Shown: positions 1,969 through 23,224, counted from the stretch's first letter. The stretch: 24,000 nucleotides of DNA from an uncultured Actinomycetota bacterium (GCA_963810435.1 CAWENL010000001.1:1456276-1480275); one strand, 5' to 3'. Notes: a model not told the origin generated them from the letters alone. Made by a program: numbers and translations.

Positions 1969-4491
1969 ATGGCCTCGGTCCCGTCCTCCGCCCGCGTCGT
2001 GGTCATCGGCGCCGGCATCGTCGGCAACAGCCTGGTCCAGCATCTCGCCCGGCTGGGCTGGAAGGACATCGTCCAGCTCGACAAGGGGGCGCTGCCCAAC
2101 CCGGGTGGCTCCACCGGCCACGCCTCGAACTTCATCTTCCCCGTGGACCACAGTCGTGAGATCACGGACCTGACCCTCGACTCCGTCGAGCAGTACAAGG
2201 AGATGGGGGTCTTCACCGAGTCCGGCGGGTTCGAGGTGGCGCGCACGGAGGAGCGGATGGAGGAGCTGCGCCGCCGGATGTCCTCGGCCAAGGCCTGGGG
2301 CATCGACGCCGAGCTGGTGACCCCTGACGTCGTGACCGAGCGGGTTCCGTTCCTCGACGCCGACCAGATCATCGGCGCCTTCTGGACCCCCTCGGTGGGC
2401 GTCGTGGACTCGCTGCGCGCCGGCACCATCATGCGTGAGGAGGCGATGGCCTCCGGTGCGCTCACCGTGGTCCCCACCGTCGAGGTCGTGGGCCTCGACG
2501 TCGAGGACGGCGCCATCCGACGCGTCCGCACCACCGGTGGCGACATCGAGGCCGAGACCGTGGTCATCGCGTGCGGCGTCTGGAGCCCCAAGATCGGCGA
2601 CATGGCCGGCATCAGCATCCCGCTGACACCCGCCGTGCACCAGATGATCAGCGTCGGGCCGTGCCCGCAGCTCGCCGGTCACGAGGGGGAGATCTCCTTC
2701 CCGATCGTGCGGGACATGGACGCGCTCTGCTACGAGCGCCAGCACGGTGCCGACATGGAGGTCGGTTCCTACGCGCACCGGGCGATCCTGCACGAGCCCG
2801 AGGAGATCCCCTCCGTCGAGCAGGCCAAGCTGTCGCCGACCGAGATGCCCTTCACCTCCGACGACTTCGACCCGCAGCTGGAGCAGGCCTTCGAGCTGAT
2901 GCCGGAGCTGCTCGGCGCCGACGGCGCGGAGATCCGCTACGCCATCAACGGGCTGCTCTCGCTGACCTGCGACGGGAGCCCCATCCTCGGGGAGAGCCAG
3001 GTCGCGGGACTCTGGACCGCCTCCGCCGTCTGGATCAAGGAAGGTCCCGGCGTGGGACGCGCGGTCGCCGAGTGGATGACGTACGGCCAGTCCGAGATCG
3101 ACGTCTCCGCCTCCGACATCGCCCGGTTCTACCCGCACCAGATGCGCCGCGAGCACACCCGGCTGCGCACCACCGAGTCGTTCATCAAGACCTACGGCAT
3201 CGTGCACCCCGCCGAGCAGTACGAGTCCGACCGCGATCAGCGGCTGTCCCCGATGCACGACTCGCAGGTGAAGCTCGGTGCCCGGTTCTTCGAGGCCGTC
3301 GGCTGGGAACGTCCGCAGTGGTACGAGTCCAACGCCGACCTGCTCGAGGTGTACGGCGACGCCGTGATGCCGCGCGAGCACGAGTGGGACGCGCGCTGGT
3401 GGAGCCCGATCATCAACGCCGAGCACCTCCGGATGCGTGAGGCCGCCGGCATCATCGACCTGACCGCCTTCGCGATCTTCGACCTCACCGGCCCTGGGGC
3501 TCTGGACGCGGTGCAGCGCACGTGCGTGGCGCAGTGCGACGTCGCGGTGGGCAAGGTGATCTACACGCCGGTGCTCGACCACAAGGGCGGGTTCCGCTCC
3601 GACCTCACGGTGATGCGGCTCGGCGAGGACCACTTCCGCGTCGTCACCGGAGGCGCGCACGGGATGGCCGACCGCAAGTGGTTCGCCGACCAGCTGCCCG
3701 CAGACGGCTCCGTGGAGCTGACCGACCGCACCGACGAGCTCTCCACCATCGGGCTGTGGGGCCCGCGCGCACGCGACATCCTCGCCTCGCTCACCGACGC
3801 CGACGTGTCCGGCGAGGGGTTCGGGATGCTGACCTGCCGCGAGATCGACGTGGACGGGACCACGGTGCTGGCCTCCCGCATCTCCTACGTCGGGGAGCTC
3901 GGCTGGGAGCTCTACGCCCCGATGGAGCACGCCGCGGGGCTGTGGGAGCGGCTGCTCGAGGCGGGCGCGCCGCACGATGCCCGTCCGGTGGGGATCGGCG
4001 TCTACGCCACGACCGGACGGATCGAGAAGGGCTACCGCGCCTTCGGGTACGAGCTCGACGGCGAGCGGACCATCGTCGAGGCCGGCATGCAGCGCCCCAA
4101 GGTCAAGGCAGCCGACTTCGTGGGCAAGGCGGCCTACCTCGCGCAGCGGGAGGCGCTGTCCTCGTCGGGACCGGAGACGGTGCTGTGCACGCTGACCGTC
4201 GACGACCACACGTCGGGCGACGGCACGAAGCGCTACATGCTCGGCGGCGAGCCGATCCTCACCCGTGACGGAAGTCTGCTGACCGACGGCCACGGCCACC
4301 ACCCCTACGTGACCTCGGCCGGCTCGGCGCCCTCGCTCGGCAAGCACGTGCTGCTCGCCTACCTGCCACCGGCCGAGGCGCGGGTCGACAACCTGCTCGC
4401 GGTCTCCTACATGGAGCAGCTCTACCCCGTGACGGTCGTCTCGGCCGATGCGACCGCCCCGTTCGACCCCGGCAACGAGCGGATGCGCTGA
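1969..4491 (+). CDS. FAD-dependent oxidoreductase fused to a GcvT-like folate-binding aminomethyltransferase domain (dimethylglycine/sarcosine dehydrogenase or oxidase family), 840 aa
   Basis: Start chosen at ATG 1969 (MASVPSSARVVVIGAGIVGNS...), which has GAAGGGAGG 6-8 nt upstream and places the GxGxxG dinucleotide fold at the N-terminus. The track's 1903 start adds an unlikely leader. The C-terminal half has GcvT-like segments (ISYVGELGWELY, GIGVYATTGRIEKGY). The TGATG junction overlaps etfB. Confidence 0.85.
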   Translation: MASVPSSARVVVIGAGIVGNSLVQHLARLGWKDIVQLDKGALPNPGGSTGHASNFIFPVDHSREITDLTLDSVEQYKEMGVFTESGGFEVARTEERMEELRRRMSSAKAWGIDAELVTPDVVTERVPFLDADQIIGAFWTPSVGVVDSLRAGTIMREEAMASGALTVVPTVEVVGLDVEDGAIRRVRTTGGDIEAETVVIACGVWSPKIGDMAGISIPLTPAVHQMISVGPCPQLAGHEGEISFPIVRDMDALCYERQHGADMEVGSYAHRAILHEPEEIPSVEQAKLSPTEMPFTSDDFDPQLEQAFELMPELLGADGAEIRYAINGLLSLTCDGSPILGESQVAGLWTASAVWIKEGPGVGRAVAEWMTYGQSEIDVSASDIARFYPHQMRREHTRLRTTESFIKTYGIVHPAEQYESDRDQRLSPMHDSQVKLGARFFEAVGWERPQWYESNADLLEVYGDAVMPREHEWDARWWSPIINAEHLRMREAAGIIDLTAFAIFDLTGPGALDAVQRTCVAQCDVAVGKVIYTPVLDHKGGFRSDLTVMRLGEDHFRVVTGGAHGMADRKWFADQLPADGSVELTDRTDELSTIGLWGPRARDILASLTDADVSGEGFGMLTCREIDVDGTTVLASRISYVGELGWELYAPMEHAAGLWERLLEAGAPHDARPVGIGVYATTGRIEKGYRAFGYELDGERTIVEAGMQRPKVKAADFVGKAAYLAQREALSSSGPETVLCTLTVDDHTSGDGTKRYMLGGEPILTRDGSLLTDGHGHHPYVTSAGSAPSLGKHVLLAYLPPAEARVDNLLAVSYMEQLYPVTVVSADATAPFDPGNERMR

Positions 4492-6255: not shown

Positions 6256-6621
6256 GTGGACAGGCCGGCGACAGGGCAGACTGGGCGCGTGCGCCGACGA
6301 CTCGACCTGCTGGCGGTGATCTCGGCCGTGCTCACCTTCGCGGTGGTGGTCATGTACCTGTTGCTGGCGGCTCTGGAGGGGGCTCGTCCCACGGTCTGGG
6401 CCGTGGCGATGCTCACCGCAGCGGGTGCCGGCGCGGTCTACGCGAGCCGGCCCACCTCGCGGCTGCGCCGTACGGTCATCGGTCTCAGCGCGGGCATGCT
6501 GCTGTACCTCGGTTACCTGACGCTGTTCTCGGTCGGGCTGCCCCTGGTGCTCTCGGGGATGCTCTGCGTGGCCTCCGCGCTCGGGGCGGGGCCGCCGCGC
6601 GACTGGCGCGACACCGTCTAG
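6256..6621 (+). CDS. Hypothetical small integral membrane protein (about 4 predicted TM helices); start uncertain (GTG 6256 or GTG 6289)
   Basis: Strong third-position GC bias. Four hydrophobic stretches (LLAVISAVLTFAVVVMYLLLAAL, VWAVAMLTAAGAGAVYA, VIGLSAGMLLYLGYLTLF, LPLVLSGMLCVASAL). No recognisable family. Confidence 0.45.
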   Translation: MDRPATGQTGRVRRRLDLLAVISAVLTFAVVVMYLLLAALEGARPTVWAVAMLTAAGAGAVYASRPTSRLRRTVIGLSAGMLLYLGYLTLFSVGLPLVLSGMLCVASALGAGPPRDWRDTV

Positions 6622-8141
6622 GCGCGGGGCCGGGTGAGGTGCGCCGGCGCCGCGGGCGGAGCGGGCACCTTCACCGGATCCTGGGGCTCCGGGTGCGTCG
6701 GTCCGACGTGCATCCGCCGGTGAGAGGATCCCGGGGCGACGAACTGCCGGGTGCCGCGCTCCTCGGCCGACTTGGGCGTGTCCACCTCGATCGGGTGGGC
6801 CTTCGCATAGGCGTCCTGACGGATCCCCGTGACCTGCCAGGACACCTCCAGCCCCGCCGTGCCCCCCGCGATCCGGAAGCGGTTGTCCTTGACCTTGCTC
6901 GCGACGTAGACCGGCGCGTGGGCGCCGATCGGTGTCAGCTGGTAGCGATAGTCCCGGTTCAGCGTCGCGAAGTAGTCGGGAAGGGTGACGGTCGCCTCGC
7001 CCGCGTCGTCGAGGACGGCGTTGCCGTTGTAGACGTTCATCATGTCGGGGGACTCGACGAACGAGTGCGACAGCCAGCGGGTGTCGGGAGCCAGCGGGTG
7101 GTCGATCCGGAAGGAGCCTGCCGACTTCGAGAGCGTGCCGTTGACGGCGACGTTGCCGTTCGCGTACACGGCGAACGACGCCGAGTTCGACGCCTGCGCG
7201 TAGAGTCCGTAGGTCTGACCGGACGTGGCGGTGGCCAGCGCGTAGACGCCGAAGCTCGGGGCCTGACCCCAGACACCGACGTAGCCGGAGTCACCCCGAA
7301 CACCGGCGGTCGAGCCGCTCTGGCCCAGCACGCCGTACTGGCCACCGGAGCCGAGGACCCCGTTGCCGGAGTTGCCGGATCGGGACCCCATGACGCCGTT
7401 GGTGCTCCCGCTTCCGAGGACACCTGTGGGACCCGAGCCGTAGACCCCGTTCGTGGTCCCGCCTCCGTAGACCCCGTTCGTACCACCGGATCCGTACAGA
7501 GCCGTGGGACCGGAGCCGTAGAAGCCGATCGAGGACCCGATCCCGACGCCGCCGTAGAAACCCGAGCCGTAGAGTCCGTACGTCCCGCCGGTAGCGGACA
7601 CCCCGGTGCTGCTGCTCGAGAACTCGCCGCCGTAGATCGAGCCGTCACCGCGGACCCCGACGTTGTTGGTCGACACGCCGGAGACGCCGTAGCCGTCGGT
7701 CGAGATGCCTTTGACGCCGTTGCCGGCCGTCGTGCTGGTCCCTGTGACGCCGGACCGTTCGGTCGTCGTCGACGTCGACGTCGTGCGGCCGGCGATCCCG
7801 ACGGGCTGCGCAGTCGTGACGTCGAGCTGGGCGACGGGGGCCGTCTTGCCGATGCCCACCCGACCCTGCGGCGTGATGCGCATCCGTTCCGTGACGGCTG
7901 CGGTGGTGGACGTCCTCGTCTTGAAGATCAGGGGGGCCACCACGGTCGGACCGAGGAAGTTCGACCCGTCGGTCGAGACATCGGCGTTGCCGCCGAGCTT
8001 CCAGGTCGAGGTGGCTGCCCCGGCCGAGGCCGGGGAGGCGGACACGACCTGGGCGACACCCGCCGCCGCGGCCGTCCCGGTGAAGGCCAGCAGCAGCCGG
8101 CGGGGGAACCTGCGTTCGAGGTCGTCGTTGGCGGTGGTCAT
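6618..8141 (-). CDS. Secreted Gly-rich nonapeptide-repeat protein, tail-fibre-like, with a conserved-looking globular C-terminal domain (507 aa)
   Basis: Start at ATG 8141, with GGGGGAGA 5 nt upstream. The track ORF extends to 9062 only because it is open antisense to the aldo/keto reductase. N-terminal RR-containing signal (LERRFPRRLLLAFTGTAAAAGVAQVVSASPASA/GA). Neck motif ERMRITPQGRVGIGKTAPVAQLDV. About 20 repeats of a 9-residue G-V-x-G-x-S/G unit. C-terminal SFRIDHPLAPDTRWLSHSFVESPDMMNVYNG...YRYQLTPIG...RFRIAGG...VSWQVTGIRQD. Confidence 0.8.
   Translation of the reverse strand: MTTANDDLERRFPRRLLLAFTGTAAAAGVAQVVSASPASAGAATSTWKLGGNADVSTDGSNFLGPTVVAPLIFKTRTSTTAAVTERMRITPQGRVGIGKTAPVAQLDVTTAQPVGIAGRTTSTSTTTERSGVTGTSTTAGNGVKGISTDGYGVSGVSTNNVGVRGDGSIYGGEFSSSSTGVSATGGTYGLYGSGFYGGVGIGSSIGFYGSGPTALYGSGGTNGVYGGGTTNGVYGSGPTGVLGSGSTNGVMGSRSGNSGNGVLGSGGQYGVLGQSGSTAGVRGDSGYVGVWGQAPSFGVYALATATSGQTYGLYAQASNSASFAVYANGNVAVNGTLSKSAGSFRIDHPLAPDTRWLSHSFVESPDMMNVYNGNAVLDDAGEATVTLPDYFATLNRDYRYQLTPIGAHAPVYVASKVKDNRFRIAGGTAGLEVSWQVTGIRQDAYAKAHPIEVDTPKSAEERGTRQFVAPGSSHRRMHVGPTHPEPQDPVKVPAPPAAPAHLTRPRA
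7137..7751 (-). repeat. Coding tandem-repeat region, about 27-nt (9-aa) period, inside the secreted repeat protein
   Basis: Protein residues about 131-335: GVKGISTDGY / GVSGVSTNNV / ...YGSGGTNGV / YGGGTTNGV / YGSGPTGV / LGSGSTNGV... A perfect 17-nt duplicate, ccgtagaccccgttcgt, occurs at 7438-7454 and 7465-7481 (27-nt offset). Confidence 0.8.
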
Positions 8142-8348
8142 GGGTGTCTCCCCCAGCGCGCGCTGTCGAGGCCGGGCGAGGCTCGGCAGCGCACGTCGGA
8201 CTGAGCCCCGTCCCGGTGAGACTAGGCTGGTGCGTCGGGGGGCCGACAGGTCCGAGGTGACCATGTCGGGTAGCGTCTCCGCGCCGTCGCGCCGGGACCT
8301 TGACCATCGGGCGTCCACACATCTCGGCCGGCTCGCTAGGTTGGCAGC

Positions 8349-9413
8349 ATGGACTACCGACCCCTCGGACGCACCGGAATGCAGGTCAGCCCGCTCTGCC
8401 TGGGAGCGATGATGTTCGGGTCGTGGGGGGAGCCCGACCACGACACCTCGGTCGAGATCATCCATCACGCACTCGACGAGGGCATCAACTTCATCGACAC
8501 CGCCGACGTCTACAGCCAGGGCGAGTCGGAGACGATCGTCGGGAAGGCCCTGGCCGGTGGACGCCGCGACGGCGTCGTGCTCGCCACGAAGTTCCACGGA
8601 CAGATGGGTGTCCCGGTCGACGCCCCGATGGGCACGAAGGGAGACCCGAACCGGCGTGGGAACTCCCGACGCTGGATCGTCGAGGAGGTCGAGCACAGCC
8701 TGCGCCGGCTCCAGACCGACTGGATCGACCTCTACCAGGTGCACCGGCCGGACACCGCCACCGACCTCGAGGAGACGCTCGCGGCGCTGACCGACCTGCA
8801 GCGCTCTGGCAAGATCAGGGCCTTCGGCTGCTCGACGTACCCCGCGCACGAGGTCGTCGAGGCGCACTGGGTCTCGGAGCGTCGCGGGCTCGGCAGGTTC
8901 GTCACCGAGCAGCCGCCGTACTCGCTGCTGGTGCGCGGGATCGAGGCCGATCTGCTGCCGGTGGCCGAGCGCTACGGCATGGGGGTCCTGCCGTGGAGCC
9001 CGCTGGCCGGGGGCTGGCTGAGCGGTCGCCACCGCAAGGGTGAGGAGGCCCCGACCTCGCACCGGGCCGATCGGATGCCGGCCCGTTACGACCTCTCACT
9101 CCCGGCCAACCAGGCGAAGCTGGACGCCGTGGAGAGCCTCGCGCTGCTCGCCGAGGACGCGGGGCTCTCACTCATCCATCTCGCCCTTGCTTTCACGCTG
9201 GCGCACCCGGCGGTGACAGCGCCGATCATCGGCCCCCGGACCAAGGGCCACCTGACCTCGCAGCTCGGGGCCGCCGACGTCACGCTCTCCGCCGACGTGC
9301 TCGACAGGATCGACGAGATCGTGCCCCCGGGCACGACCTTCGCCGACACCGACAGGGGGTACGTCCCGCCCGCGCTCCAGGACCCCCGCCTGCGTCGCCG
9401 TCGTAGCGACTGA
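8349..9413 (+). CDS. Aldo/keto reductase family oxidoreductase (354 aa)
   Basis: MDYRPLGRTGMQVSPLCLGAMMFG..., INFIDTADVYSQGESE, LYQVHRPD, and SPLAGGWLSG are canonical AKR blocks. Confidence 0.9.
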   Translation: MDYRPLGRTGMQVSPLCLGAMMFGSWGEPDHDTSVEIIHHALDEGINFIDTADVYSQGESETIVGKALAGGRRDGVVLATKFHGQMGVPVDAPMGTKGDPNRRGNSRRWIVEEVEHSLRRLQTDWIDLYQVHRPDTATDLEETLAALTDLQRSGKIRAFGCSTYPAHEVVEAHWVSERRGLGRFVTEQPPYSLLVRGIEADLLPVAERYGMGVLPWSPLAGGWLSGRHRKGEEAPTSHRADRMPARYDLSLPANQAKLDAVESLALLAEDAGLSLIHLALAFTLAHPAVTAPIIGPRTKGHLTSQLGAADVTLSADVLDRIDEIVPPGTTFADTDRGYVPPALQDPRLRRRRSD

Positions 9414-9427
9414 GCGGCGGGAGCGGG

Positions 9428-9643
9428 CTACAGGTGCAGCACCAGACCCACGCCGGCCATCGTCATCGCGAGCGCGACCAGCCACGGCCGGAACCGGTTC
9501 GCGAGGGCCACCCGATGCCGAAGCACCCCCGGGATGGTCTCCACCGGCAGATGCCGCACGGCGTAGGCCTGGAGCAGCAGCACCGCGGCGATCAGCAGCC
9601 CGGACTGGAGCAGGACGGGTGCGGCGTCCGGCGGCACGGTCAT
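9428..9643 (-). CDS. Hypothetical 71-aa two-TM membrane protein
   Basis: ATG at 9643 with GAGGAG 7 nt upstream. High GC3. Two hydrophobic helices (VLLQSGLLIAAVLLLQAYAV, WLVALAMTMAGVGLVLHL). The track's longer 101-aa version adds an Arg-rich leader with no ribosome-binding site. Confidence 0.5.
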   Translation of the reverse strand: MTVPPDAAPVLLQSGLLIAAVLLLQAYAVRHLPVETIPGVLRHRVALANRFRPWLVALAMTMAGVGLVLHL

Positions 9644-9705
9644 GGGGTACTCCTCGTCCGGTGGCTCGGTGGTTCGGACGATAGGCAGCGGCCGACGTCG
9701 GTGAC

Positions 9706-9720
9706 GTCTCAATGTGAGAC
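9706..9720. promoter_or_regulatory. Palindrome GTCTCA-atg-TGAGAC (copy 1 of 3), candidate regulator binding site
   Basis: Perfect 6-bp inverted arms. It is intergenic: 29 nt downstream of the regulator stop (9750) and centred about 70 nt upstream of the 71-aa ORF start (9643). Confidence 0.6.
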
Positions 9721-9749
9721 GGCCCCGCCTCACGCCCTGAGTCGGGGCG

Positions 9750-11591
9750 TCAGCCCTGCGGTGCGACGACGATGCCGTAGTCGTGGATCTTGCGGTAGAT
9801 GGTCGCGCGGGACATCCCGAGCGCGCGAGCTGCCTGGACCTTGTTGCCGTCGGCTTCGGACAGGCTCCGCACGATGGCGTCCCGCTCCATCGACTCCAAG
9901 GGACTGAGCACCCGTCGGCTCACCGAGTGCGTCTCCGGGGGCAGGTCCTCGACCTGGATGCATCCCGTGCGGCGATGGGTGACGACCTCCCGGAGCAGCT
10001 GATGCAGCTGCTCGGCATTGCCTGGCCACGGCATCCGCATGAGCAGCCGGACGGCCGCCGGGGAGAGGCTGAGGTGTCCGCCCTGCTCGAGACGGGACAA
10101 GAACAGCGTCGCCAGCGGTTGGAGGTCCTCGACGTGCACCCGCAGCGGCGGGACGTCGAGGGTCCTGGGGAACAGCCGCAACAGCTGCCGGAGATCCTCG
10201 TGACGCCGGAGGTGCCCTACGGTGGCGGCGGCCCAGAGCGGCCGGGGGCGGTCCGCGGTGCGCGCCTCCTGCAGAGCGGCCGAGAGGTCCCGAAGAGCGG
10301 GGCCGTCCAGTCGGTCGGCGTGCCGCAGCACGACCGTGTCGGCGTCGCGGAGGATCGCCCGGCGTGCACCCGAGAGCCAGTCCCGGTCGGTTCCGGCCGC
10401 TGGCGGCTCGAGGACCACGAACCGGCCGACGGGCTGCCGCCGCAGCTGGACCGACCGCAGCAGTGCCAGCTTGCCGACACCCGGCTCCCCCTCGAGGACC
10501 AGCCACTCGCCGGAGCGGTAGGTGCTCTCGAGCTCGTGGCAGACGCGCAGCCACACGGGGCTGGAGCCGACCAGCCCCGGCAGCGGCGCCAACGGCTCCG
10601 GGTGCGAGGGCCCGCCGCTGCGGTGCCCGGCACCGTGATCCTCCAGCCGGACGTGGGCGACGACCCCGGCGAACCGCTCGCCGCTCTGGACGCGCCGGCA
10701 GTGCATCCGAGCGGTCTGCCCGGACGGCAGGTCGACACCGAAGCTCCTGCGGTGCCGGGGCACCATCGCCTCGGTCGCCTGCGCCAACAGGACCGCCTGC
10801 TCGGCCGGCTCGAGCACGGTGCGCGCCACGTCGTTCATCATCACCACGTGGTCGTTCACCGCGAGCACGACCTCGGTGCCGCGGCTGCAGGCACGCAGGT
10901 ACTCCTGGAACAGCTCCAGCTCACAGGCGCCGGCCTCGGCCAGCAGCACCTGCCGGATCTGCTCCGCCGTGGTCTTGGCGAGCGCGAGCAGCAGCGCGCC
11001 CGCGTCCTTGCGCCAGCACGTCAGGTCGACCGCGCCCACGAGCCGCCCGGACACCGGGTGATGGATCGGTACGCCCGCGCACGCCAGGTCTTCGAGGTTC
11101 TCCGCGTAGTGCTCGTGCCCGAAGACGTGCGCCGGCCCGCCGACCTCCAGGGCGGTCCCGATGCCGTTCGTCCCGACGAACTCCTCGGCATAGCTGAAGC
11201 CGGGGGCCAGCAGCACCCGCTCGAGGTGCCGCTCGAGGTCGCTGTCACCGGTCAGGCGACGGACCACCAGCCCGGACGGATCGGTCAGAATCACACTGAC
11301 CGACTGACCGTCCAGCTGCTGGCTCAGGCTGCGCAGCACCGGGTCGGCACTGCGGGTCAGCCGCGTGTCGAGCTCGGCGTTCTCGACGTACGGGAGATGG
11401 ATCTTGTCCGCCGGAACCTGCAGGTCGTGGGAGCGGCGCCACGACGCGAGAATCGGACCCCGCACCGCCCGCGGCTCGGGGGGCTCGTGGGTCAGGAACC
11501 TGACCCGGTTCTCCGCCACGTCGGCCTGATCAGCTATGACGACGCTCTCTCGCGTCCACGGTGCTTGCTTCACCTCGGACTCCAGCCCCAC
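9750..11591 (-). CDS. AcoR/MimR-like transcriptional activator: GAF sensor + degenerate AAA+ (bEBP-like) + Fis-type HTH
   Basis: GAF-type block FVGTNGIGTALEVGGPAHVFGHEHY...CAGVPIHHPVSGRLVGAVDLTC. P-loop remnant LVLEGEPGVGKLALL. bEBP C-terminal blocks DVPPLRVHVEDL, MPWPGNAEQL. HTH GNKVQAARALGMSRATIYRKIHDYGI. Divergent from a di-iron monooxygenase operon, as for mimR/prmR-type regulators. Start uncertain: GTG 11591, or GTG 11573, which has GGAG 6 nt upstream. Confidence 0.85.
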   Translation of the reverse strand: MGLESEVKQAPWTRESVVIADQADVAENRVRFLTHEPPEPRAVRGPILASWRRSHDLQVPADKIHLPYVENAELDTRLTRSADPVLRSLSQQLDGQSVSVILTDPSGLVVRRLTGDSDLERHLERVLLAPGFSYAEEFVGTNGIGTALEVGGPAHVFGHEHYAENLEDLACAGVPIHHPVSGRLVGAVDLTCWRKDAGALLLALAKTTAEQIRQVLLAEAGACELELFQEYLRACSRGTEVVLAVNDHVVMMNDVARTVLEPAEQAVLLAQATEAMVPRHRRSFGVDLPSGQTARMHCRRVQSGERFAGVVAHVRLEDHGAGHRSGGPSHPEPLAPLPGLVGSSPVWLRVCHELESTYRSGEWLVLEGEPGVGKLALLRSVQLRRQPVGRFVVLEPPAAGTDRDWLSGARRAILRDADTVVLRHADRLDGPALRDLSAALQEARTADRPRPLWAAATVGHLRRHEDLRQLLRLFPRTLDVPPLRVHVEDLQPLATLFLSRLEQGGHLSLSPAAVRLLMRMPWPGNAEQLHQLLREVVTHRRTGCIQVEDLPPETHSVSRRVLSPLESMERDAIVRSLSEADGNKVQAARALGMSRATIYRKIHDYGIVVAPQG

Positions 11592-11737
11592 TCGTGTCCA
11601 TACGGTTCCCGGGCCGGTACGCGACCCAGCCAGCGCCCCCGAGACACCGTGTGTCCACCCGCTGATTCCTTACCGTAAGCGCTCGGGACGCGGGGGTCGA
11701 GGGGCGCCGGTCGCCTGTTGTCGCAGCCTCATCGGCT

Positions 11738-11752
11738 GTCTCAGATTGAGAC
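11738..11752. promoter_or_regulatory. Palindrome GTCTCA-gat-TGAGAC (copy 2 of 3)
   Basis: Perfect arms. It lies in the divergent intergenic region, 147 nt from the regulator start and 80 nt upstream of the 82-aa ORF start. Confidence 0.6.
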
Positions 11753-11832
11753 GGCGGCCCGGAAATTCGGGCGTACCGTGCGCTTCAACTCTGGCTTGAC
11801 GCACCAGCACGCGAGACCTTGCGGAGGTACCG

Positions 11833-12081
11833 ATGACCGCGTTCGAGGACGCAGGAGCCGAGACCTACAACCCCTGGACCGTGGTGAACCTGGTCTTCTC
11901 GCACCTCGCCGAGCAAGGCCTGCATCCGACCCTGGGCGAGAGCGGTGACCCGGGCGAGCCGGCCCGTTCGCTGCTCGCTGCGCTGGGCATCGAGTCGTCG
12001 GCGGAGGGCAACCGGGAGGTGATGCGCGACGTGCGTCGACAGCTCGCGGAGATCCGCGCGGCGATGTTCGACGACGCCTGA
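11833..12081 (+). CDS. Hypothetical 82-aa acidic soluble protein between the regulator and the monooxygenase
   Basis: ATG with GGAGG 7 nt upstream. Very strong GC3 bias throughout. No TM segment and no family I recognise (MTAFEDAGAETYNPWTVVNLVFSHLAEQGLHPTLGE...REVMRDVRRQLAEIRAAMFDDA). Confidence 0.6.
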   Translation: MTAFEDAGAETYNPWTVVNLVFSHLAEQGLHPTLGESGDPGEPARSLLAALGIESSAEGNREVMRDVRRQLAEIRAAMFDDA

Positions 12082-12098
12082 CCGGTGCCGCGGGGATC

Positions 12099-12113
12099 GT
12101 CTCATTGTGAGAC
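12099..12113. promoter_or_regulatory. Palindrome GTCTCA-ttg-TGAGAC (copy 3 of 3), upstream of prmA
   Basis: Perfect arms. It starts 17 nt after the 82-aa ORF stop and is centred about 158 nt upstream of the prmA ATG, a position typical of an activator upstream site. Confidence 0.6.
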
Positions 12114-12176
12114 CTGACGAGCCCCCGTCATGGGCTTGCATGGTCTGTGAGCACCAACACGCAACACCGGACAGAA

Positions 12177-12197
12177 CACCTGCACCACCACCTGCAC
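12177..12197 (+). repeat. Tandem direct repeat CACCTGCAC-cac-CACCTGCAC (12-nt period) in the prmA leader/promoter region
   Basis: Read directly: 12177-12185 and 12189-12197 are identical 9-mers. They lie about 70 nt upstream of the prmA start. Confidence 0.5.
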
Positions 12198-12263
12198 AGG
12201 AACCACCCGCGTACCGACCGGACTCCATCCGGAAGCTGACTTGATCCAGGGAAGGACTTGGTG

Positions 12264-13916
12264 ATGACTCGCCAAAGCGTGGCCAAGGCTCACGAGAAGA
12301 TCCAGGAGCTGGCTTGGGAGCCGCTCTACCACGAGCCGGTGTCCCAGTACGGGACGGATTACACCTTCCAGAAGGCGAAGAAGAAGGACCCGCTCAAGCA
12401 GGTCCTGCGCTCGTACTTCCCGATGGAGGAGGAGAAGGACCACCGGGTCTACGGTGCGGCCGACGGGGCCATCCGGGGCAACATGTTCCGGCAGGTCCAG
12501 GAGCGCTGGCTGGAGTGGCAGAAGCTCTTCTTGAGCATCATCCCGCTGCCGGAGATCTCCGCCGCTCGCGCGATGCCGCTGCTGTTCCGCAACGTGCCGA
12601 ACCCCGAGCTGCACAACGGGCAGGCCATCCAGATGATCGACGAGGTGCGGCACTCGACGATCCAGCAGAACCTCAAGCGCCTGTACATGAACAACTACAT
12701 CGACCCGGCGGGGTTCAACAACAGCCTGCGCAACTTCCAGAACGACTACTGCGGCACGATCGGTCGTCAGTTCGCGGAGGGCTTCATCACCGGGGACGCG
12801 ATCACCGCGGCCAGCATCTACCTGACGATCGTGGCCGAGACGGCGTTCACCAACACGCTGTTCGTCGCGATGCCTGCCGAGGCCGCCGCGAACGGTGACT
12901 ACCTGCTGCCGACGGTCTTCCACTCGGTGCAGTCCGACGAGTCGCGTCACATCAGCAACGGCTACGCGACGCTGCTGATGGCTCTCGCCGACGAGGGCAA
13001 CCACCAGCTGCTCGAGCGTGACCTGAGGTACGCCTGGTGGAACAACCACCGGGTCGTCGACGCCGCGATCGGCACCTTTATCGAGTACGGCACCAAGGAC
13101 CGGCGCAAGGACCGGGAGAGCTACGCCGAGATGTGGCGTCGGTGGATCTACGACGACTACTACCGCAGCTACCTGGTGCCTCTCGAGAAGTATGGCCTGG
13201 TGATCCCGCACGACCTGATCGAGGAGTCCTGGAACCAGATCTGGAACAAGGGCTACGTCCACGAGGTCGCGCAGTTCTTCTGCACGGGATGGCTCGCCAA
13301 CTACTGGCGGATGGACCCGATGACCGACAAGGACTTCGAGTGGTTCGAGTACAAGTACCCGGGCTGGTACGACAAGTACGGCGCCTGGTGGGAGAACTAC
13401 GCCCGGCTCTCGGTCCCGAACGGGCACCACCCGATCGTGGCCGAGGACGTCGACTACCAGTATCCGCACCGCTGCTGGACCTGCATGGTGCCGTGCCTGG
13501 TCCGCGAGGACATGGTGATGGCCGAGGTCGACGGGCAGATGCGTACCTACTGCCACGAGGCGTGCCGGTGGACCGACGTGGAGGCCTTCCGGCCGACCTA
13601 CCAGGGTCGCGAGACCCCCAACATGGGTCAGCTGATCGGCAAGCGTGAGTGGGAGACGCTCTACCACGGCTGGAACTGGGCTGATGTCGTCTCGGACATG
13701 GGCTACGTGCGCGACGACGGCCACACGCTCGTGGCGCAGCCGCACCTGGACCTCAACCCGAAGAAGATGTGGAACCTGGACCACCTGCGCAGGATGGGCC
13801 CGCTGCTGAGCCCGAACGTGACGCTGAACGAGATGTCGGCGGACGAGCAGAAGGCGTTCCACGCGAACTACATCAAGGGCGGGCCTGCGGGCCGGCCGGC
13901 GCCGGCGGACGCCTGA
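12264..13916 (+). CDS. prmA: Soluble di-iron monooxygenase hydroxylase alpha (large) subunit, propane/acetone/phenol monooxygenase type (PrmA/MimA-like), 550 aa
   Basis: Both carboxylate-bridged di-iron motifs are present: E...DEVRH (EXXH) and AETAF...SDESRH (EXXH). Start taken at ATG 12264, 7 nt after GAAGGA; the track's TTG 12258 adds 2 residues. Gene order alpha-reductase-beta-coupling matches prmABCD/mimABCD. Confidence 0.93.
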   Translation: MTRQSVAKAHEKIQELAWEPLYHEPVSQYGTDYTFQKAKKKDPLKQVLRSYFPMEEEKDHRVYGAADGAIRGNMFRQVQERWLEWQKLFLSIIPLPEISAARAMPLLFRNVPNPELHNGQAIQMIDEVRHSTIQQNLKRLYMNNYIDPAGFNNSLRNFQNDYCGTIGRQFAEGFITGDAITAASIYLTIVAETAFTNTLFVAMPAEAAANGDYLLPTVFHSVQSDESRHISNGYATLLMALADEGNHQLLERDLRYAWWNNHRVVDAAIGTFIEYGTKDRRKDRESYAEMWRRWIYDDYYRSYLVPLEKYGLVIPHDLIEESWNQIWNKGYVHEVAQFFCTGWLANYWRMDPMTDKDFEWFEYKYPGWYDKYGAWWENYARLSVPNGHHPIVAEDVDYQYPHRCWTCMVPCLVREDMVMAEVDGQMRTYCHEACRWTDVEAFRPTYQGRETPNMGQLIGKREWETLYHGWNWADVVSDMGYVRDDGHTLVAQPHLDLNPKKMWNLDHLRRMGPLLSPNVTLNEMSADEQKAFHANYIKGGPAGRPAPADA

Positions 13917-13949
13917 GCAGCACAACCGCAGCAACCGGAGAACGAGGCT

Positions 13950-13979
13950 GGCGAGGGGCCGGCTGACCGGCCCCTCGCC
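13950..13979 (+). promoter_or_regulatory. Perfect 13-bp stem / 4-nt loop hairpin between prmA and prmB (attenuator or RNA-stability element candidate)
   Basis: GGCGAGGGGCCGG-ctga-CCGGCCCCTCGCC, with 12 G:C pairs and 1 A:T pair. It starts 34 nt after the prmA stop. It is followed by the pyrimidine-rich tccttctccc and has no clean U-tract. Confidence 0.55.
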
Positions 13980-14037
13980 TCCTTCTCCCGGGTGTCAGGC
14001 GGCACGTGAGTCGGTGACCAGCGTCGGGAAGGGCGGC

Positions 14038-15078
14038 ATGGGCGAGAAGCACGTCGTGAGGTTCGAACCCGTCGGCATCGAGATCGATGTCGAGGAGGAG
14101 ACCAACGTCCTGCGAGCCGCTGCGGAGCAGGGCATCACCTTGATGCACGGGTGCAAAGAGGGACAGTGCTCGTCCTGCAAGTCGTTCGTCCTGGACGGGG
14201 AGGAGCCGGAGCTCGACAAGTACTCGACCTTCGCGTTGCCCGACTTCGAGAGGGAGGAGGGCTTCACGCTGCTCTGCCGGGCGCACGTCTACGAGGACAC
14301 GACGATCGAGCTCCTCAACTACGACGAGGAGATGATCCGGTCCGGGCACCCGATCCAGGAAGCGGTCGCGGAGGTGGTTGCCAACGACGCGGTGACGCAC
14401 GACCTGCGCCATCTCGTCCTGAAGCTGGTCGAACCCACGGACATCGAGTACTGGCCCGGCCAGTACGTCGACATCGCGGTCCCGGACACCGAGGAGACCC
14501 GCTCCTTCTCGATGGCCAACACCACCAGCAAGGAGAGCGGTCAGCTCGAGTTCGTCATCAAGATCTACCCCGATGGGCTGTTCTCGAGCTTCCTGGACAG
14601 CAAGGTCCAGGTGGGCGACCGGCTCGACCTGGTCGGGCCGTTCGGAGTCTTCACCCTGCGCGAGCGGGACTCCGACATCGTCTTCGTCGGAGGCGGCGCC
14701 GGGATGGCCCCGATCCTGTGCCTCCTGCGGACCCTTGCCGAGCGGGGCAGCTCGCGGAAGGCGACGTACTACTACGGCGCCCGGGCCAAGCGTGACCTGT
14801 GCTTCGAGGAGGAGCTGCACGGTCTCAGCGAGTCGATGCCGAACTTCCGGTTCGTGCCCGCGCTGTCCGAGCCGGCCGACGACGACGAGTGGGACGGCGA
14901 GGTCGGCATGATCACCGACGTCGTCGAGCGACACGAGAGCGACCTCGCCGAGGTCGACGCCTATGTCTGCGGGCCGCCACCGATGGTCGAGGCGGCCGTC
15001 GATCTGCTCGGCGGGCTCGGAGCGTCCAAGAAGACCATCTACTTCGACAAGTTCACCACCACCGGGGAACCCACATGA
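14038..15078 (+). CDS. prmB: Monooxygenase NADH:oxidoreductase component (plant-type 2Fe-2S ferredoxin + FNR-like FAD/NAD domain), 346 aa
   Basis: 2Fe-2S motif C-x4-C-x2-C...C (GCKEGQCSSCK...LLC). Flavin motif RSFSMAN. NAD(P) motif VGGGAGMAPI. C-terminal YVCGPPPMV. Start at ATG 14038 after GGGAAGGG; the track start GTG 14014 is possible but has no ribosome-binding site. Confidence 0.9.
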   Translation: MGEKHVVRFEPVGIEIDVEEETNVLRAAAEQGITLMHGCKEGQCSSCKSFVLDGEEPELDKYSTFALPDFEREEGFTLLCRAHVYEDTTIELLNYDEEMIRSGHPIQEAVAEVVANDAVTHDLRHLVLKLVEPTDIEYWPGQYVDIAVPDTEETRSFSMANTTSKESGQLEFVIKIYPDGLFSSFLDSKVQVGDRLDLVGPFGVFTLRERDSDIVFVGGGAGMAPILCLLRTLAERGSSRKATYYYGARAKRDLCFEEELHGLSESMPNFRFVPALSEPADDDEWDGEVGMITDVVERHESDLAEVDAYVCGPPPMVEAAVDLLGGLGASKKTIYFDKFTTTGEPT

Positions 15079-15102
15079 GCACGAGAGCGAGGCGGATCTG
15101 AG

Positions 15103-16305
15103 ATGACGACGACCCACGAGGTCACGGACGAGACCACGGAGGAGACCGTGGAACGCAGCGTTCCGAAGCCGGTGTTCACCGACGCCGAGGCCGGCGCCCG
15201 GGAGTTCCCGGACTCCACCGCCCGGGTCCACAACTACTTCACCCCGAAGAAGCGGAAGGCCTCCCACTACGAGGACGTCACCGTCGAGGTCCAGCCCGAC
15301 CCCCGGCACTACCTGGCCCAGGGCTGGCTGTACGGCTTCTCCGACGGCCGCGGCGGATATCCCCTGGACTGGACGGCTCTCAAGGCCTGGGGTGTCGACC
15401 GGGGCGACCCGGAGCGCTACCCCGGCTCAGGGGGGAAGGGCTACGACTGGCCCGCGCACGGGTGGCACGAGTTCCGCGACCCCAACGAGGAGTGGGAGCT
15501 CACGATCTACCGCTACAACGCCAACGTGGTGCGGCAGATCAACCAGAACGTCGAGACTGCCCGACAGTCCAAGGCGTTCGACCAGTGGAACCCCAACTGG
15601 GTCACGTTCGTCGAGCGCAACGTCGGGGCCTGGATGCATGTCGAGCACGGCCTGGGGCTCTACCTCTTCGCGAACGCGCAGCGGCGCGCCCCCACGAACA
15701 TGCACAACAACGCGATCTCGGTGAACAGCATGCACAAGCTGCGCTTCGCCCAGGACCTGGCGCTCTACAACCTGACCCTGAGCGAGGAGATCGAGGACTT
15801 CGACGGCGCCGCGCACGTGGCCACCTGGAACGAGGACACCAGCTGGCAGGGGGTCCGCAAGGTCGCCGAGCAGCTGACCGGGATCGACGACTGGGGTGAG
15901 GCGATCTTCGCGGCCAACCTGGTCTTCGAGCCACTGGTCGGCGAGCTGTTCCGCAGCAACCTCGTGCAGCAGGCCTCACCGGGCAACGGCGACTACGTCA
16001 CGCCGACCGTGGTCGGCGCCGGTGAGCTGGACTACGCCACCCGCGACCTGCGGTACACCAAGGCGATGTTCGAGCTGCTGGTCAACGACAAGGAGTTCGC
16101 CGAGCACAACGTGAGCCTGATGGACCAGTGGCTCTCGGTGTGGGTCCCGCGATGCATCACCGCGGCGCGGGAGCTCCAGCCGCTGTGGTCCCAGCCCGAC
16201 TCGAAGCCGCCGCGGTTCGAGGACGGTCTGGACCGTGCGAAGAGCCGCTTCAGCGGCCTGCTGTCCGAGCTGAACCTGAACGAGCCGAAGGAGCTGGCCC
16301 AGTGA
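15103..16305 (+). CDS. prmC: Soluble di-iron monooxygenase hydroxylase beta (small) subunit, 400 aa
   Basis: Position and size fit the third gene of prmABCD/mimABCD. All-helical ferritin-like composition without the di-iron EXXH pairs. GTGA overlap with the next gene. Confidence 0.85.
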
Positions 16306-16703
16306 GCGCCTACAAGTCGACCTCGACGTCCTACAAGACCACCGAGAGCGCCTACAAGTCGGACAACACCGCCTCGAACAAGTGCGGCTTCACCCTGATG
16401 AACAACCAGGTCGGGGTCGTCGTGGCGGAGGTGATGAGCCAGGCGACGGGGGTGAAGGTGACGCACCTTCCGTCGATGATCCGGGTCGACGCCGAGAACA
16501 AGTGCGAGGTCGTCTACGACGACGTCTCCGAGGCGCTGGGGGAGGAGGAAGGCTTCTTCAACGCCGCCGAGTTCGAGGAGAACATGTCGACGCACTACGG
16601 CCGGATGATCCACCAGGACGACCGCACGATCATGTTCGCCAACCCCGAGGACGCCGCCGAGTACATCGGCTTCGACCTGACGGACCTCCAGAAGTCGAGC
16701 TGA
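16302..16703 (+). CDS. prmD: Monooxygenase coupling/effector protein (MmoB/DmpM family) with an unusual Ser/Thr/Tyr/Lys N-terminal tail
   Basis: The core from about [18 protein letters not shown] to EYIGFDL fits small cofactor-less effector proteins. GTG 16302 overlaps the prmC stop (GTGA). An alternative internal start is ATG 16398 (MNNQVG). Confidence 0.8.
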
Positions 16704-16739
16704 CCACCTGTCCGAGCCGGAACCCCCGAGGGAGCACAC

Positions 16740-17779
16740 GTGTACGAGAAGGACGGCAACAAGTACTTCATCGTTGACAGCCACATGCACTACTGGGACG
16801 CGAGTCCCGAGAACTGGGTCAGCGGTCACGAGAACTACGCCAAGGGCTGGATCGAGTGCTTCCACGCCTACCAAGGGCTCGGACCGCCCGAGACGCACTG
16901 GACGATCGAGCACTTCCAGAAGTACTCCGAGCAGGACCTGATGAAGGACGTCTTCGAGGACGGGTACGTCGACGTCGCGGTGTTCCAGCCCACCTACCTC
17001 AAGGAGTGGTACACCGAGGGGTTCAACACCACCGAGCGCAACGGCGCACTGTCGAAGAAGCACCCGGGCAAGTTCGTCGTGAACACCCGCTTCGACCCGC
17101 GCGAGGGGGCGGCCGGGCTCGAGGAGCTGGAGAAGAACGTCGAGCAGTGGGGGGCCACGGGCGTCAAGCTCTACACCGCCGAGTGGCGGGGCGACTCACG
17201 CGGCTGGACCCTGAAGGACCCGGAGGCCTACACCTACCTCGCGAAGGCGCAGGAGCTGGGCGTCAAGAACATCCACGTCCACAAGGGGCCGACCATCTGG
17301 CCACTGGACAAGGACGCCTTCGACGTCAGCGACGTCGACCACGCCGCCACCGACTTCCCGGAGCTGAACTTCATCGTCGAGCACGTGGGACTTCCCCGCA
17401 TCGAGGACTTCTGCTTCATGGCGACCCAGGAGCCCAACGTGTACGCCGGACTGTCGGTGGTGATCGGGGGGCTGATGTACGCCCGGCCGAAGTTCTTCGC
17501 GAAGGTGATGGGCGAGCTGCTGTTCTGGGTCGGCGAGGACAAGATGACGTTCGGGAGCGACTACGGCATCTGGGAGCCGAAGTGGCAGATCGAGGGCTTC
17601 GTGGACTGGGACTACCCGGGCGAGGAGTTCTCCGACTACCCGCGCGTCGACGTCAACACCAAGAAGAAGATCCTCGGGCTGAACGCGGCGAAGCTGTACG
17701 ACATCGAGGTCCCGCCCGAGTACCGGATCGCCACCGACGAGGAGGCGCCGGCCTCGAAGGACGACGCGGTGCTGGTGGA

Positions 17780-17783
<4 letters not shown>
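16740..17783 (+). CDS. Amidohydrolase-2-type metal-dependent hydrolase (TIM barrel), 347 aa
   Basis: HxH metal motif near the N-terminus (VDSHMHYWD). Later HVH/EH blocks (NIHVHKGP, IVEHVG) and FGSDYG. GAGGGAG ribosome-binding site 5 nt before GTG 16740. A gene of this type follows prmD/mimD in described actinobacterial clusters, as far as I recall. Confidence 0.85.
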
Positions 17784-21883
<4,100 letters not shown>

Positions 21884-23163: not shown

Positions 23164-23224
23164 CACCTCCCACGCCCAATTCCGCCGGAGCGGTGGAGGA
23201 GTCTCGTGGTGAGTCGTCCATGCC

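Follow-up and report, generated by a model that had tools for sequence, protein, structure and literature searches.

What reads a 15-bp palindrome that recurs around a monooxygenase operon, and what would its binding do there? The question is raised by a 24,000-nt stretch of DNA from an uncultured Actinomycetota bacterium (GCA_963810435.1 CAWENL010000001.1:1456276-1480275; hereafter the window, 24 kb in all), in which the exact sequence GTCTCA-N3-TGAGAC, here called the box, starts at positions 9706, 11738, and 12099 and occurs nowhere else. The copies lie around the gene for a MimR-family regulator, two small genes (orf71 and orf82), and prmA of a group-5 soluble diiron monooxygenase (SDIMO) operon. 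From the sequence comparisons described below, the box is very likely the recognition site of the adjacent regulator, which is predicted to act as a class-II activator at sigma-70-type promoters.

Occurrence and conservation of the box

The box palindromes are real and non-random. One hundred dinucleotide-preserving shuffles of the window, used as the chance level, contained 0.01 copies on average compared with the three seen, and none of the 100 reached three. Relaxing the pattern added a single two-mismatch site at 23201 (GTCTCGTGGTGAGTC), which was set aside as it falls within the chance expectation of 1.46 and lacks promoter context. Genes were called from Pfam matches, third-position GC, and homology. 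Box A (12099..12113, GTCTCATTGTGAGAC; as palindromes, the boxes are given no strand) lies 5' of prmA and 18 nt past the orf82 stop, in the interval from that stop at 12081 to the prmA start at 12258. Box B (11738..11752, GTCTCAGATTGAGAC) occupies the divergent region between the regulator start at 11591 and the orf82 start at 11833, and box C (9706..9720, GTCTCAATGTGAGAC) lies between the 3' end of the regulator gene (stop at 9750) and the orf71 start at 9643. The scan and the gene calls bear out a first-pass annotation of this DNA, which had described three exact palindromes, all intergenic. Its distances of ~70, ~88, and ~158 nt to the downstream starts are correct if counted from box centre to start codon. 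It had also reported no perfect copy inside a gene, and indeed the mechanical open reading frames (ORFs) that run over boxes (e.g. 9428..9733) have neither codon-bias nor homologue support.

Eighty related loci were fetched from a genome collection, anchored on the regulator protein (56–70% identical to that of the window). They derive from Nocardioidaceae, Marmoricola, Microlunatus, Dermatophilaceae, Jiangellaceae, and Jatrophihabitantaceae, as well as Streptosporangiaceae, Nonomuraea, Asanoa, Planosporangium, Dactylosporangium, and others. Cultured strains that bear the box include Nocardioides donggukensis MJB4 (locus L020, with boxes A, B, and C), Asanoa ishikariensis DSM 44718, and Nonomuraea solani. 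The box was present with zero or one mismatch in 80/80 loci, at the same positions as in the window and with hardly any copies elsewhere in the 948 kb. A motif search in related genomes had been proposed in the first-pass annotation; here the copies sit at promoters of prm-linked loci and are not dispersed. Box B lies ~150 nt upstream of the regulator in 79/80 loci, an equivalent of box A (zero or one mismatch) is found in 75/80, and box C lies just past the regulator stop in 20. Anchored alignments gave ~2 bits per arm position and flanks essentially devoid of information. Given that the flanks are randomised, the intergenic DNA appears saturated with change, with the box held by selection. 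Arm sequence (12/12 bases) and position are conserved over ~90 loci. In a census of all perfect 6-N(0-6)-6 palindromes in the 80 loci, GTCTCA-N3 ranked first with 135 copies distributed over 80/80 loci; the next best had 33.

In one locus, L038, the regulator gene has been displaced, and the boxes remain with orf82 and prmA, not with the regulator. Between the regulator and orf82 of this locus (7834-9406) lies a GPR1/FUN34/YaaH-family gene (acetate-transporter-like), and an extra one-mismatch box is found at 8780. Across loci, boxes A and B are 276–528 bp apart, box A being further upstream of the regulator; DNA looping between the two was rejected because these spacings show no helical phasing. 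Three loci (L037, 3456; L041, 7916; L079, 5792) carry a box with zero or one mismatch 3' of the regulator, followed by an operon encoding a DtxR/IdeR-family repressor, a multicopper oxidase, and a ZIP transporter. Neither orf71 nor the usual 22-nt spacing described below is present there, and these boxes could reflect a link to metal supply or a coincidence.

The exact box also extends to the prm/mim clusters of Rhodococcus, Gordonia, and Mycobacterium, whose regulators are ~40% identical to that of the window. In Gordonia and on two Rhodococcus plasmids it precedes prmA, in Rhodococcus it also precedes the regulator gene, the mimA-mimR intergenic region of Mycobacterium holds two copies, and R. 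opacus PD630 has it as well. In a complete 146-kb R. aetherivorans plasmid, exact boxes are restricted to the promoters of prmA and the regulator, and there are no one-mismatch copies. A two-mismatch copy (GAGTCATATTGAGAC) at 70266 of the R. aetherivorans BW2 plasmid (NZ_CP154794.1), just upstream of furA-katG and beside the prm cluster, is probably due to chance. Upstream of the Rhodococcus regulator genes in L082 (7925, 7942) and L086 (9919, 9936), an exact box is followed 17 bp on by a degenerate second box (one to two mismatches), a tandem arrangement not seen in the window or its close relatives. In Rhodococcus plasmids (L084, 3890-3899; L085, 3892-3901), TGTGACA abuts the box upstream of prmA; this element, absent from the window, is probably the CRP-like site of Cappelletti et al. 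2015.

A motif-first metagenome scan with GTCTCAACATGAGAC returned 120 stretches, 52 with GC of at least 0.60 and 68 of lower GC. Homologues of MimR, prmA, or orf82 lay beside the match in 45/52 of the former and 0/68 of the latter, the second figure being accounted for by chance 15-mers expected in unrelated organisms. Seven high-GC matches have no MimR/prm neighbours (L120, L141, L144, L163, L203, L205, L208): the match in L120 is intragenic in an ATP-binding cassette (ABC)-type gene, and the other six are on short contigs. Two metagenome loci (L139, 4730; L162, 11677) encode MimR paralogues (46–49% identical) divergent from an operon for an amidohydrolase, an iron-sulfur (FeS)-assembly protein, and an alcohol dehydrogenase (ADH). 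This operon is preceded by box-N22-TGTGAT, and monooxygenase subunits are absent nearby, a layout suggesting that the accessory module can be a stand-alone target.

The regulator and its recognition helix

The regulator gene occupies 9750..11591 on the minus strand. Its product, the presumed box binder, comprises a GAF domain, a degenerate AAA+ core, an AAA lid, and a Fis-type helix-turn-helix (HTH) of the HTH_8 family; the Pfam matches are GAF, AAA_lid_14, and HTH_8. It aligns end to end with the Mycobacterium protein P0111 (40% identity, E = 6e-129), which carries PF26965, PF26961, PF25601, and PF02954, and its membership in MimR_N/MimR rests on this alignment, not on direct model scoring. 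The sensor/degenerate AAA+/lid/HTH_8 architecture is that of the MimR family, as is the position adjoining a group-5 SDIMO cluster with amidohydrolase, FeS-assembly, ADH, and GroEL-like genes.

The regulator resembles enhancer-binding proteins (EBPs) in part. Those in the PDB align with it only over residues 464-607, and its similarity to the NCBIfam EBP models is limited to the lid and HTH. DhaR was the best partial NCBIfam match (126 bits against a cut-off of 551), and TyrR scored 30 against 576; with both scores far under the cut-offs, assignment to the TyrR/DhaR equivalogs was rejected. A sigma-54-dependent protein of the AcoR/NtrC type was likewise rejected. Pfam gave no Sigma54_activat match to the regulator at E <= 1e-3, and the GAFTGA loop is absent from its sequence (a Walker A motif is present). 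Moreover, none of the three promoter regions contains a sigma-54 -24/-12 element (TGGCAC-N5-TTGCW), which the window as a whole holds 69 times compared with a shuffle mean of 69.7. Given the missing loop and Pfam match, and given that DhaR, its best partial match in NCBIfam, is sigma-70-dependent, the protein fits a sigma-54-independent activator. Actinomycetota are generally held to lack rpoN.

All box-bearing loci encode the same HTH segment, LG(M/I)SRATIYRKI, even where the regulators are ~40% identical overall. Paralogues with the helix ARSSLYRKI, found on Rhodococcus plasmids, have no GTCTCA box and carry GTCC(G/T)A-N3-TGGGAC instead. The variant sites lie upstream of the paralogue itself and ~80 nt upstream of an adjacent gene resembling Baeyer-Villiger monooxygenases (BVMOs), and, as in the main box class, AT follows them at offset 27-28. 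The first-pass annotation had seen in the palindrome the layout of a dimeric HTH site, with the adjacent regulator as the candidate binder. A 6-N3-6 dyad suits a dimeric HTH of the Fis type, and the neighbouring regulator is indeed the likely binder, as suggested by a box that travels with the family, by the invariant helix, and by a paralogue in which helix and box have both changed.

Other members of the family were also observed. On plasmids pRHL2 and pN1 (L089, 2835; L090, 2836; L102, 2509; L103, 429), the ARSSLYRKI paralogue stands by a BVMO-like oxidoreductase and a hydrolase, and together with the BVMO-like gene it may form an acetone-monooxygenase (acmAB-like) regulon. Streptomyces paralogues with SRATMYRKM, encoded beside an ADH, go with GTCTCAATGTGATAC. 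No recognisable box was found for the distant paralogues with ARSTLYRKM, GRATLYRKM, or SRSTLYARM, so that the box code is traced here in two classes. In L084, from the megaplasmid of Rhodococcus sp. JS3073, the DNA upstream of prmA (3184-3387, minus strand) encodes another MimR-like C-terminus, whose HTH is degenerate (VGHVPGTIHRKIRGFGI); it may be a decaying paralogue.

Promoter geometry and alternative roles for the box

Downstream of the boxes, -10-like hexamers at fixed offsets (hexamer start after the box) were found above a background of at most 1.2 matches per offset. Toward prmA, T-N-N-N-A-T starts at offset 23 from box A in 70/76 sites; toward orf71, TANNNT starts at offset 23 from box C in 18/21 sites (consensus TAGCGT). 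Box B is followed by TANNNT at offset 22 in 39/80 sites on the regulator side and 23/80 on the orf82 side, where TNNNAT at offset 23 accounts for 19/80. The non-promoter sides of the boxes in the same loci showed no such fixed-offset hexamers. At 29/81 box B sites, -10-like hexamers are present on both sides, suggesting that one box serves two divergent promoters. In the window, the -10-like hexamer of prmA is TTGCAT (12136..12141, plus strand), 22 nt past box A; that of orf82 is TACCGT (11774..11779, plus strand), 21 nt past box B, with TAGCGT or TAACGT at the same offset in close relatives; and that of orf71 is TATCGT (9678..9683, minus strand), 22 nt from box C.

These positions can be related to a mapped promoter. 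TTGCAT recurs in a Mycobacterium locus (L088), and the Gordonia locus (L087) has TTGTAT, arranged as box-N22-TTGTAT, 7 nt, and then 56 nt to a TTG start codon. By primer extension, the Rhodococcus BCP1 prmA transcript starts 55 bp upstream of the TTG and 7 bp after a -10 of TTGTAT (PMC4428276). Since the Gordonia spacing matches this promoter, the box can be placed between about -50 and -36, centred near -43. By the same spacing, prmA transcription in the window is predicted to start near 12149, leaving a 5' untranslated region of ~109 nt. A site in the low -40s that replaces the -35 element, as located by the fixed 21–22 nt gap and the transferred start site, is the arrangement of a class-II activator, as are the lack of a good -35 hexamer and the sub-consensus -10. 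A scan of 9400-12400 for sigma-70 consensus promoters found none, and a terminator scan of the region returned one terminator-like match, unrelated to the boxes.

These observations are consistent with the following scheme. The regulator, with its sensory GAF domain and degenerate AAA+ core, would be an EBP descendant, and a dimer of its C-terminal Fis-type HTH would read both 6-bp arms. The box, at about -50 to -36, would take the place of the -35 element 21–22 nt upstream of a weak -10, and the inducer-bound regulator would recruit or stabilise sigma-70-type RNA polymerase in class-II style, with no role for sigma-54. Three promoters would be so wired in the window: those of orf71, orf82, and the prmA operon. 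Physical binding, activation over repression, the start sites in this organism, and the inducer are the parts of this scheme that we infer.

Several observations weigh against this scheme. The 80 loci were picked via the regulator and are phylogenetically related, and the start sites were transferred from one mapped homologous promoter. The covariation of helix and box comes essentially from one contrasting paralogue class, and a search of the accessible literature for a MimR/Prm operator found no binding, footprint, or reporter data for any member of the family. In the window itself, a -10-like hexamer is found at the class-II distance from box B on the orf82 side only, not on that of the regulator, leaving any autoregulation there conjectural. 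Finally, the prmA -10 reads T-[T/G/C]-N-N-A-T in 70/76 loci and never has A at position 2, unlike the promoters of orf71 and the regulator, which use TANNNT; prmA may differ in its sigma factor or in how its promoter is melted. Beside these points stands an observation made by eye: at 11671-11677, a small palindrome (TTACCGTAA) yields TACGGT on the minus strand, ~80 nt upstream of the regulator start and 17 nt past TCGACC, a candidate box-independent promoter of the regulator in the window.

The overlap of the box with the -35 place (-50 to -36) also counts against the activator scheme, as the same regulator could use the box mainly as a repression operator, the unliganded protein occluding the -35, or as a dual repress/activate switch. 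E. coli DhaR, the nearest NCBIfam match, is known to autorepress, and the two tandem boxes 17 bp apart at Rhodococcus regulator promoters form a layout frequent in autorepression. However, target promoters that have no -35 consensus and weak -10s are typical of activator dependence, and Furuya and colleagues are reported to have found in 2011 that M. smegmatis lacking mimR no longer induces mim in response to acetone, with no de-repression. We consider a mainly repressive or dual role unlikely. An alternative sigma factor could instead explain the non-canonical prmA -10 (TNNNAT, with no A at position 2), if the half-site TGAGAC were its -35-type element and the palindromy incidental. This proposal appears highly improbable given that both arms are equally conserved, that the box is used bidirectionally (the 29/81 box B sites above), that the -10 lies 21–22 nt past the end of the box, farther than a -35/-10 pair of the sigma-70 family allows, and that the box co-varies with the regulator helix.

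Two further explanations would separate the box from the regulator altogether. An unlinked, conserved Actinomycetota factor, for example a global carbon regulator, could bind the box while the adjacent regulator acts elsewhere. CRP-like sites have been proposed in the same promoter (PMC4428276), and the abutting TGTGACA in Rhodococcus plasmids is in keeping with such a factor. Yet the box is found only beside MimR-family genes or target operons (in ~1.2 Mb of actinobacterial DNA, in a whole plasmid, and in the 45/52 high-GC metagenome matches), and a changed helix paired with a changed box at the paralogue and BVMO-like promoters is not expected of a global factor, leaving this explanation very improbable. 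The palindrome could also act as a nucleic-acid hairpin, be it a terminator, a processing site, or a cruciform. As RNA, its arms could pair into a stem of 6 bp closed by a 3-nt loop (with flanks, -6 to -14 kcal/mol), and box A and box C lie just past the stops of orf82 and the regulator, respectively. We find a hairpin hardly credible, however. The sequence of the 12 arm bases is fixed over ~180 copies, with no compensatory changes, one-mismatch variants (e.g. CTCTCA...TGAGAC) break the pairing, no T-run follows the palindrome, the folds are weak or, for box A, no better than shuffles (z = -0.34), no Rfam match was found, and the boxes lie upstream of start sites by homology to the mapped promoter. 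Recognition by the adjacent regulator as a class-II activator therefore remains our preferred explanation.

Predicted targets and relation to known systems

Two of the predicted target promoters precede genes for small proteins. The gene orf82 (11833..12081, plus strand), the predicted target of the box B promoter, encodes an acidic protein of 82 aa and is supported by homology and a third-position GC of 0.88. It was found by tblastn between box B and box A in 80/80 loci at 60–82% identity, with only a 27-aa fragment in L065. Its 759 homologue clusters are all hypothetical where named, and the alignment has 27 invariant columns (e.g. E10, YNPW 12-15, GLHP 29-32, GDP 38-40, and EGNR 58-61). No Pfam or NCBIfam match was obtained for orf82, nor a Pfam domain in its homologue clusters; its AlphaFold model, with three helices and moderate confidence (pLDDT 69), had no fold match in the PDB. 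The small ORFs flanking the PD630 regulator were considered as counterparts of orf82 and proved unrelated. The gene orf71 (9428..9643, minus strand; 71 aa), the predicted target of the box C promoter, is matched by homologues in 17 loci, each of them with a box C. Its product has two hydrophobic stretches, from which its membrane character was read, and no Pfam or NCBIfam match. Both genes are absent from the Mycobacteriales loci examined. The first-pass annotation had placed both small ORFs in the regulon, in agreement with the position of orf82 behind a box in 80 loci and with the 17/17 orf71 loci that carry box C. The comparisons thus suggest that orf82 and orf71 are real, co-regulated genes.

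The third predicted target, that of box A, is the group-5 SDIMO operon (12258..21257, plus strand), which was identified from Pfam matches and conserved gene order. It comprises prmA, a reductase, prmC, a coupling protein, an amidohydrolase, an FeS-assembly protein, a Zn-ADH, and a GroEL-like chaperonin, in an order kept in related loci and in R. opacus, Gordonia, and Mycobacterium. At the expected place of the coupling protein, a mechanical ORF (16382-16777, plus strand) has a low third-position GC (0.35) and lacks an MmoB match, suggesting that the true prmD lies in another frame; its tblastn matches reflect DNA conservation, not that frame. On the other side of the regulator and orf71, an aldo/keto reductase gene (8349-9413, plus strand) is well supported. 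An 814-aa ORF (6618-9062, minus strand) with a moderately high third-position GC of 0.83 and no Pfam match overlaps it on the opposite strand, so at least part of this ORF is presumably non-coding.

Group-5 SDIMOs oxidise propane, acetone, 1,4-dioxane, tetrahydrofuran, and N-nitrosodimethylamine, and they are targets for bioremediation and biosensors. A box conserved from Mycobacterium to Nocardioides and Nonomuraea would offer a ready operator for assay and reporter design and for regulon prediction in genomes and metagenome-assembled genomes. The contrast between the two box classes (T4 to C and A12 to G in the box, SRATI to ARSSL in the helix) makes for a simple specificity-swap design, and orf82 is flagged as a co-regulated, uncharacterised cluster component outside Mycobacteriales. 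Taken together, the element is a predicted operator of a regulator family already described; it is solidly useful and moderately surprising.

The palindrome has a precedent at one of these promoters. Cappelletti et al. 2015 (PMC4428276) described, from sequence analysis only, a conserved palindrome over the prmA -35 region in BCP1, RHA1, PD630, and M. smegmatis, likened it to the 15-bp Fis site, and ascribed it to the nearby Fis-family regulator. As far as that report describes it, the BCP1 palindrome is very probably GTCTCA-N3-TGAGAC, judging from its position and spacing, which the Gordonia promoter matches base for base. The first-pass annotation had known of no published operator of this sequence. 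This holds for experimentally defined operators, of which we found none, but probably not for the sequence itself, given the Fis-like prmA palindrome already in that report. The report makes no mention of a box at the regulator or small-ORF promoters, of one outside Mycobacteriales, or of a fixed spacing (PMC4428276). A 2022 review still describes the regulation of group-5 SDIMOs as "sequence analysis only". New here are the exact consensus, its 12/12 invariance across families, the -43 geometry, the use of the box at regulator and small-ORF promoters, the paralogue variant, and the two small-protein targets.

A broader reading, which we offer tentatively and hold to be possible rather than probable, is that MimR-type proteins are widespread actinobacterial EBP descendants that gave up sigma-54 in favour of a sigma-70-type polymerase, bind a 6-N3-6 box at about -43 instead of a -35 element, and follow paralogue-specific box codes, with orf82 as a dedicated partner. 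If so, their -10 elements would systematically lack the -11 A, GTCTCA would mark prm/mim clusters and GTCC(G/T)A those for BVMOs and esterases, and regulons would be predictable from sequence. The orf82 protein would then be a hitherto unrecognised partner, working with either the monooxygenase or the regulator.

Comparison with known systems places the window closest to its own family. MimR of Mycolicibacterium smegmatis, which we take to be the acetone-responsive activator of mimABCD (Pfam MimR_N PF26965 and MimR PF26961), belongs to a Mycobacterium system that shares with the window the domain order, an adjacent group-5 SDIMO with a GroEL-like gene, and the same box. Unlike that system, the window has orf82 with its own box between the regulator and prmA, as well as box C with orf71. 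E. coli TyrR and DhaR are similar in being EBP-like proteins without GAFTGA that have a ligand-sensing N-terminus and a C-terminal HTH recognising dyad boxes close to sigma-70 promoters. The box of TyrR, TGTAAA-N6-TTTACA, differs in sequence and spacing, however, and the AAA+ core of the window regulator is the more degenerate. With NtrC and Fis the element shares the HTH_8 family; it is a 15-bp dyad whose outer bases, G at position 1 and C at position 15, match the Fis core, and its N3 centre is like that of the NtrC site, TGCACCA-N3-TGGTGCA. Whereas NtrC uses remote enhancers and sigma-54, the box in the window abuts the core promoter. In its geometry the arrangement recalls class-II CRP/FNR promoters, where a dyad in the low -40s replaces the -35 and the -10 is weak, although the activator families are unrelated and the box is centred at about -43 (from one mapped homologous promoter) rather than at -41.5.

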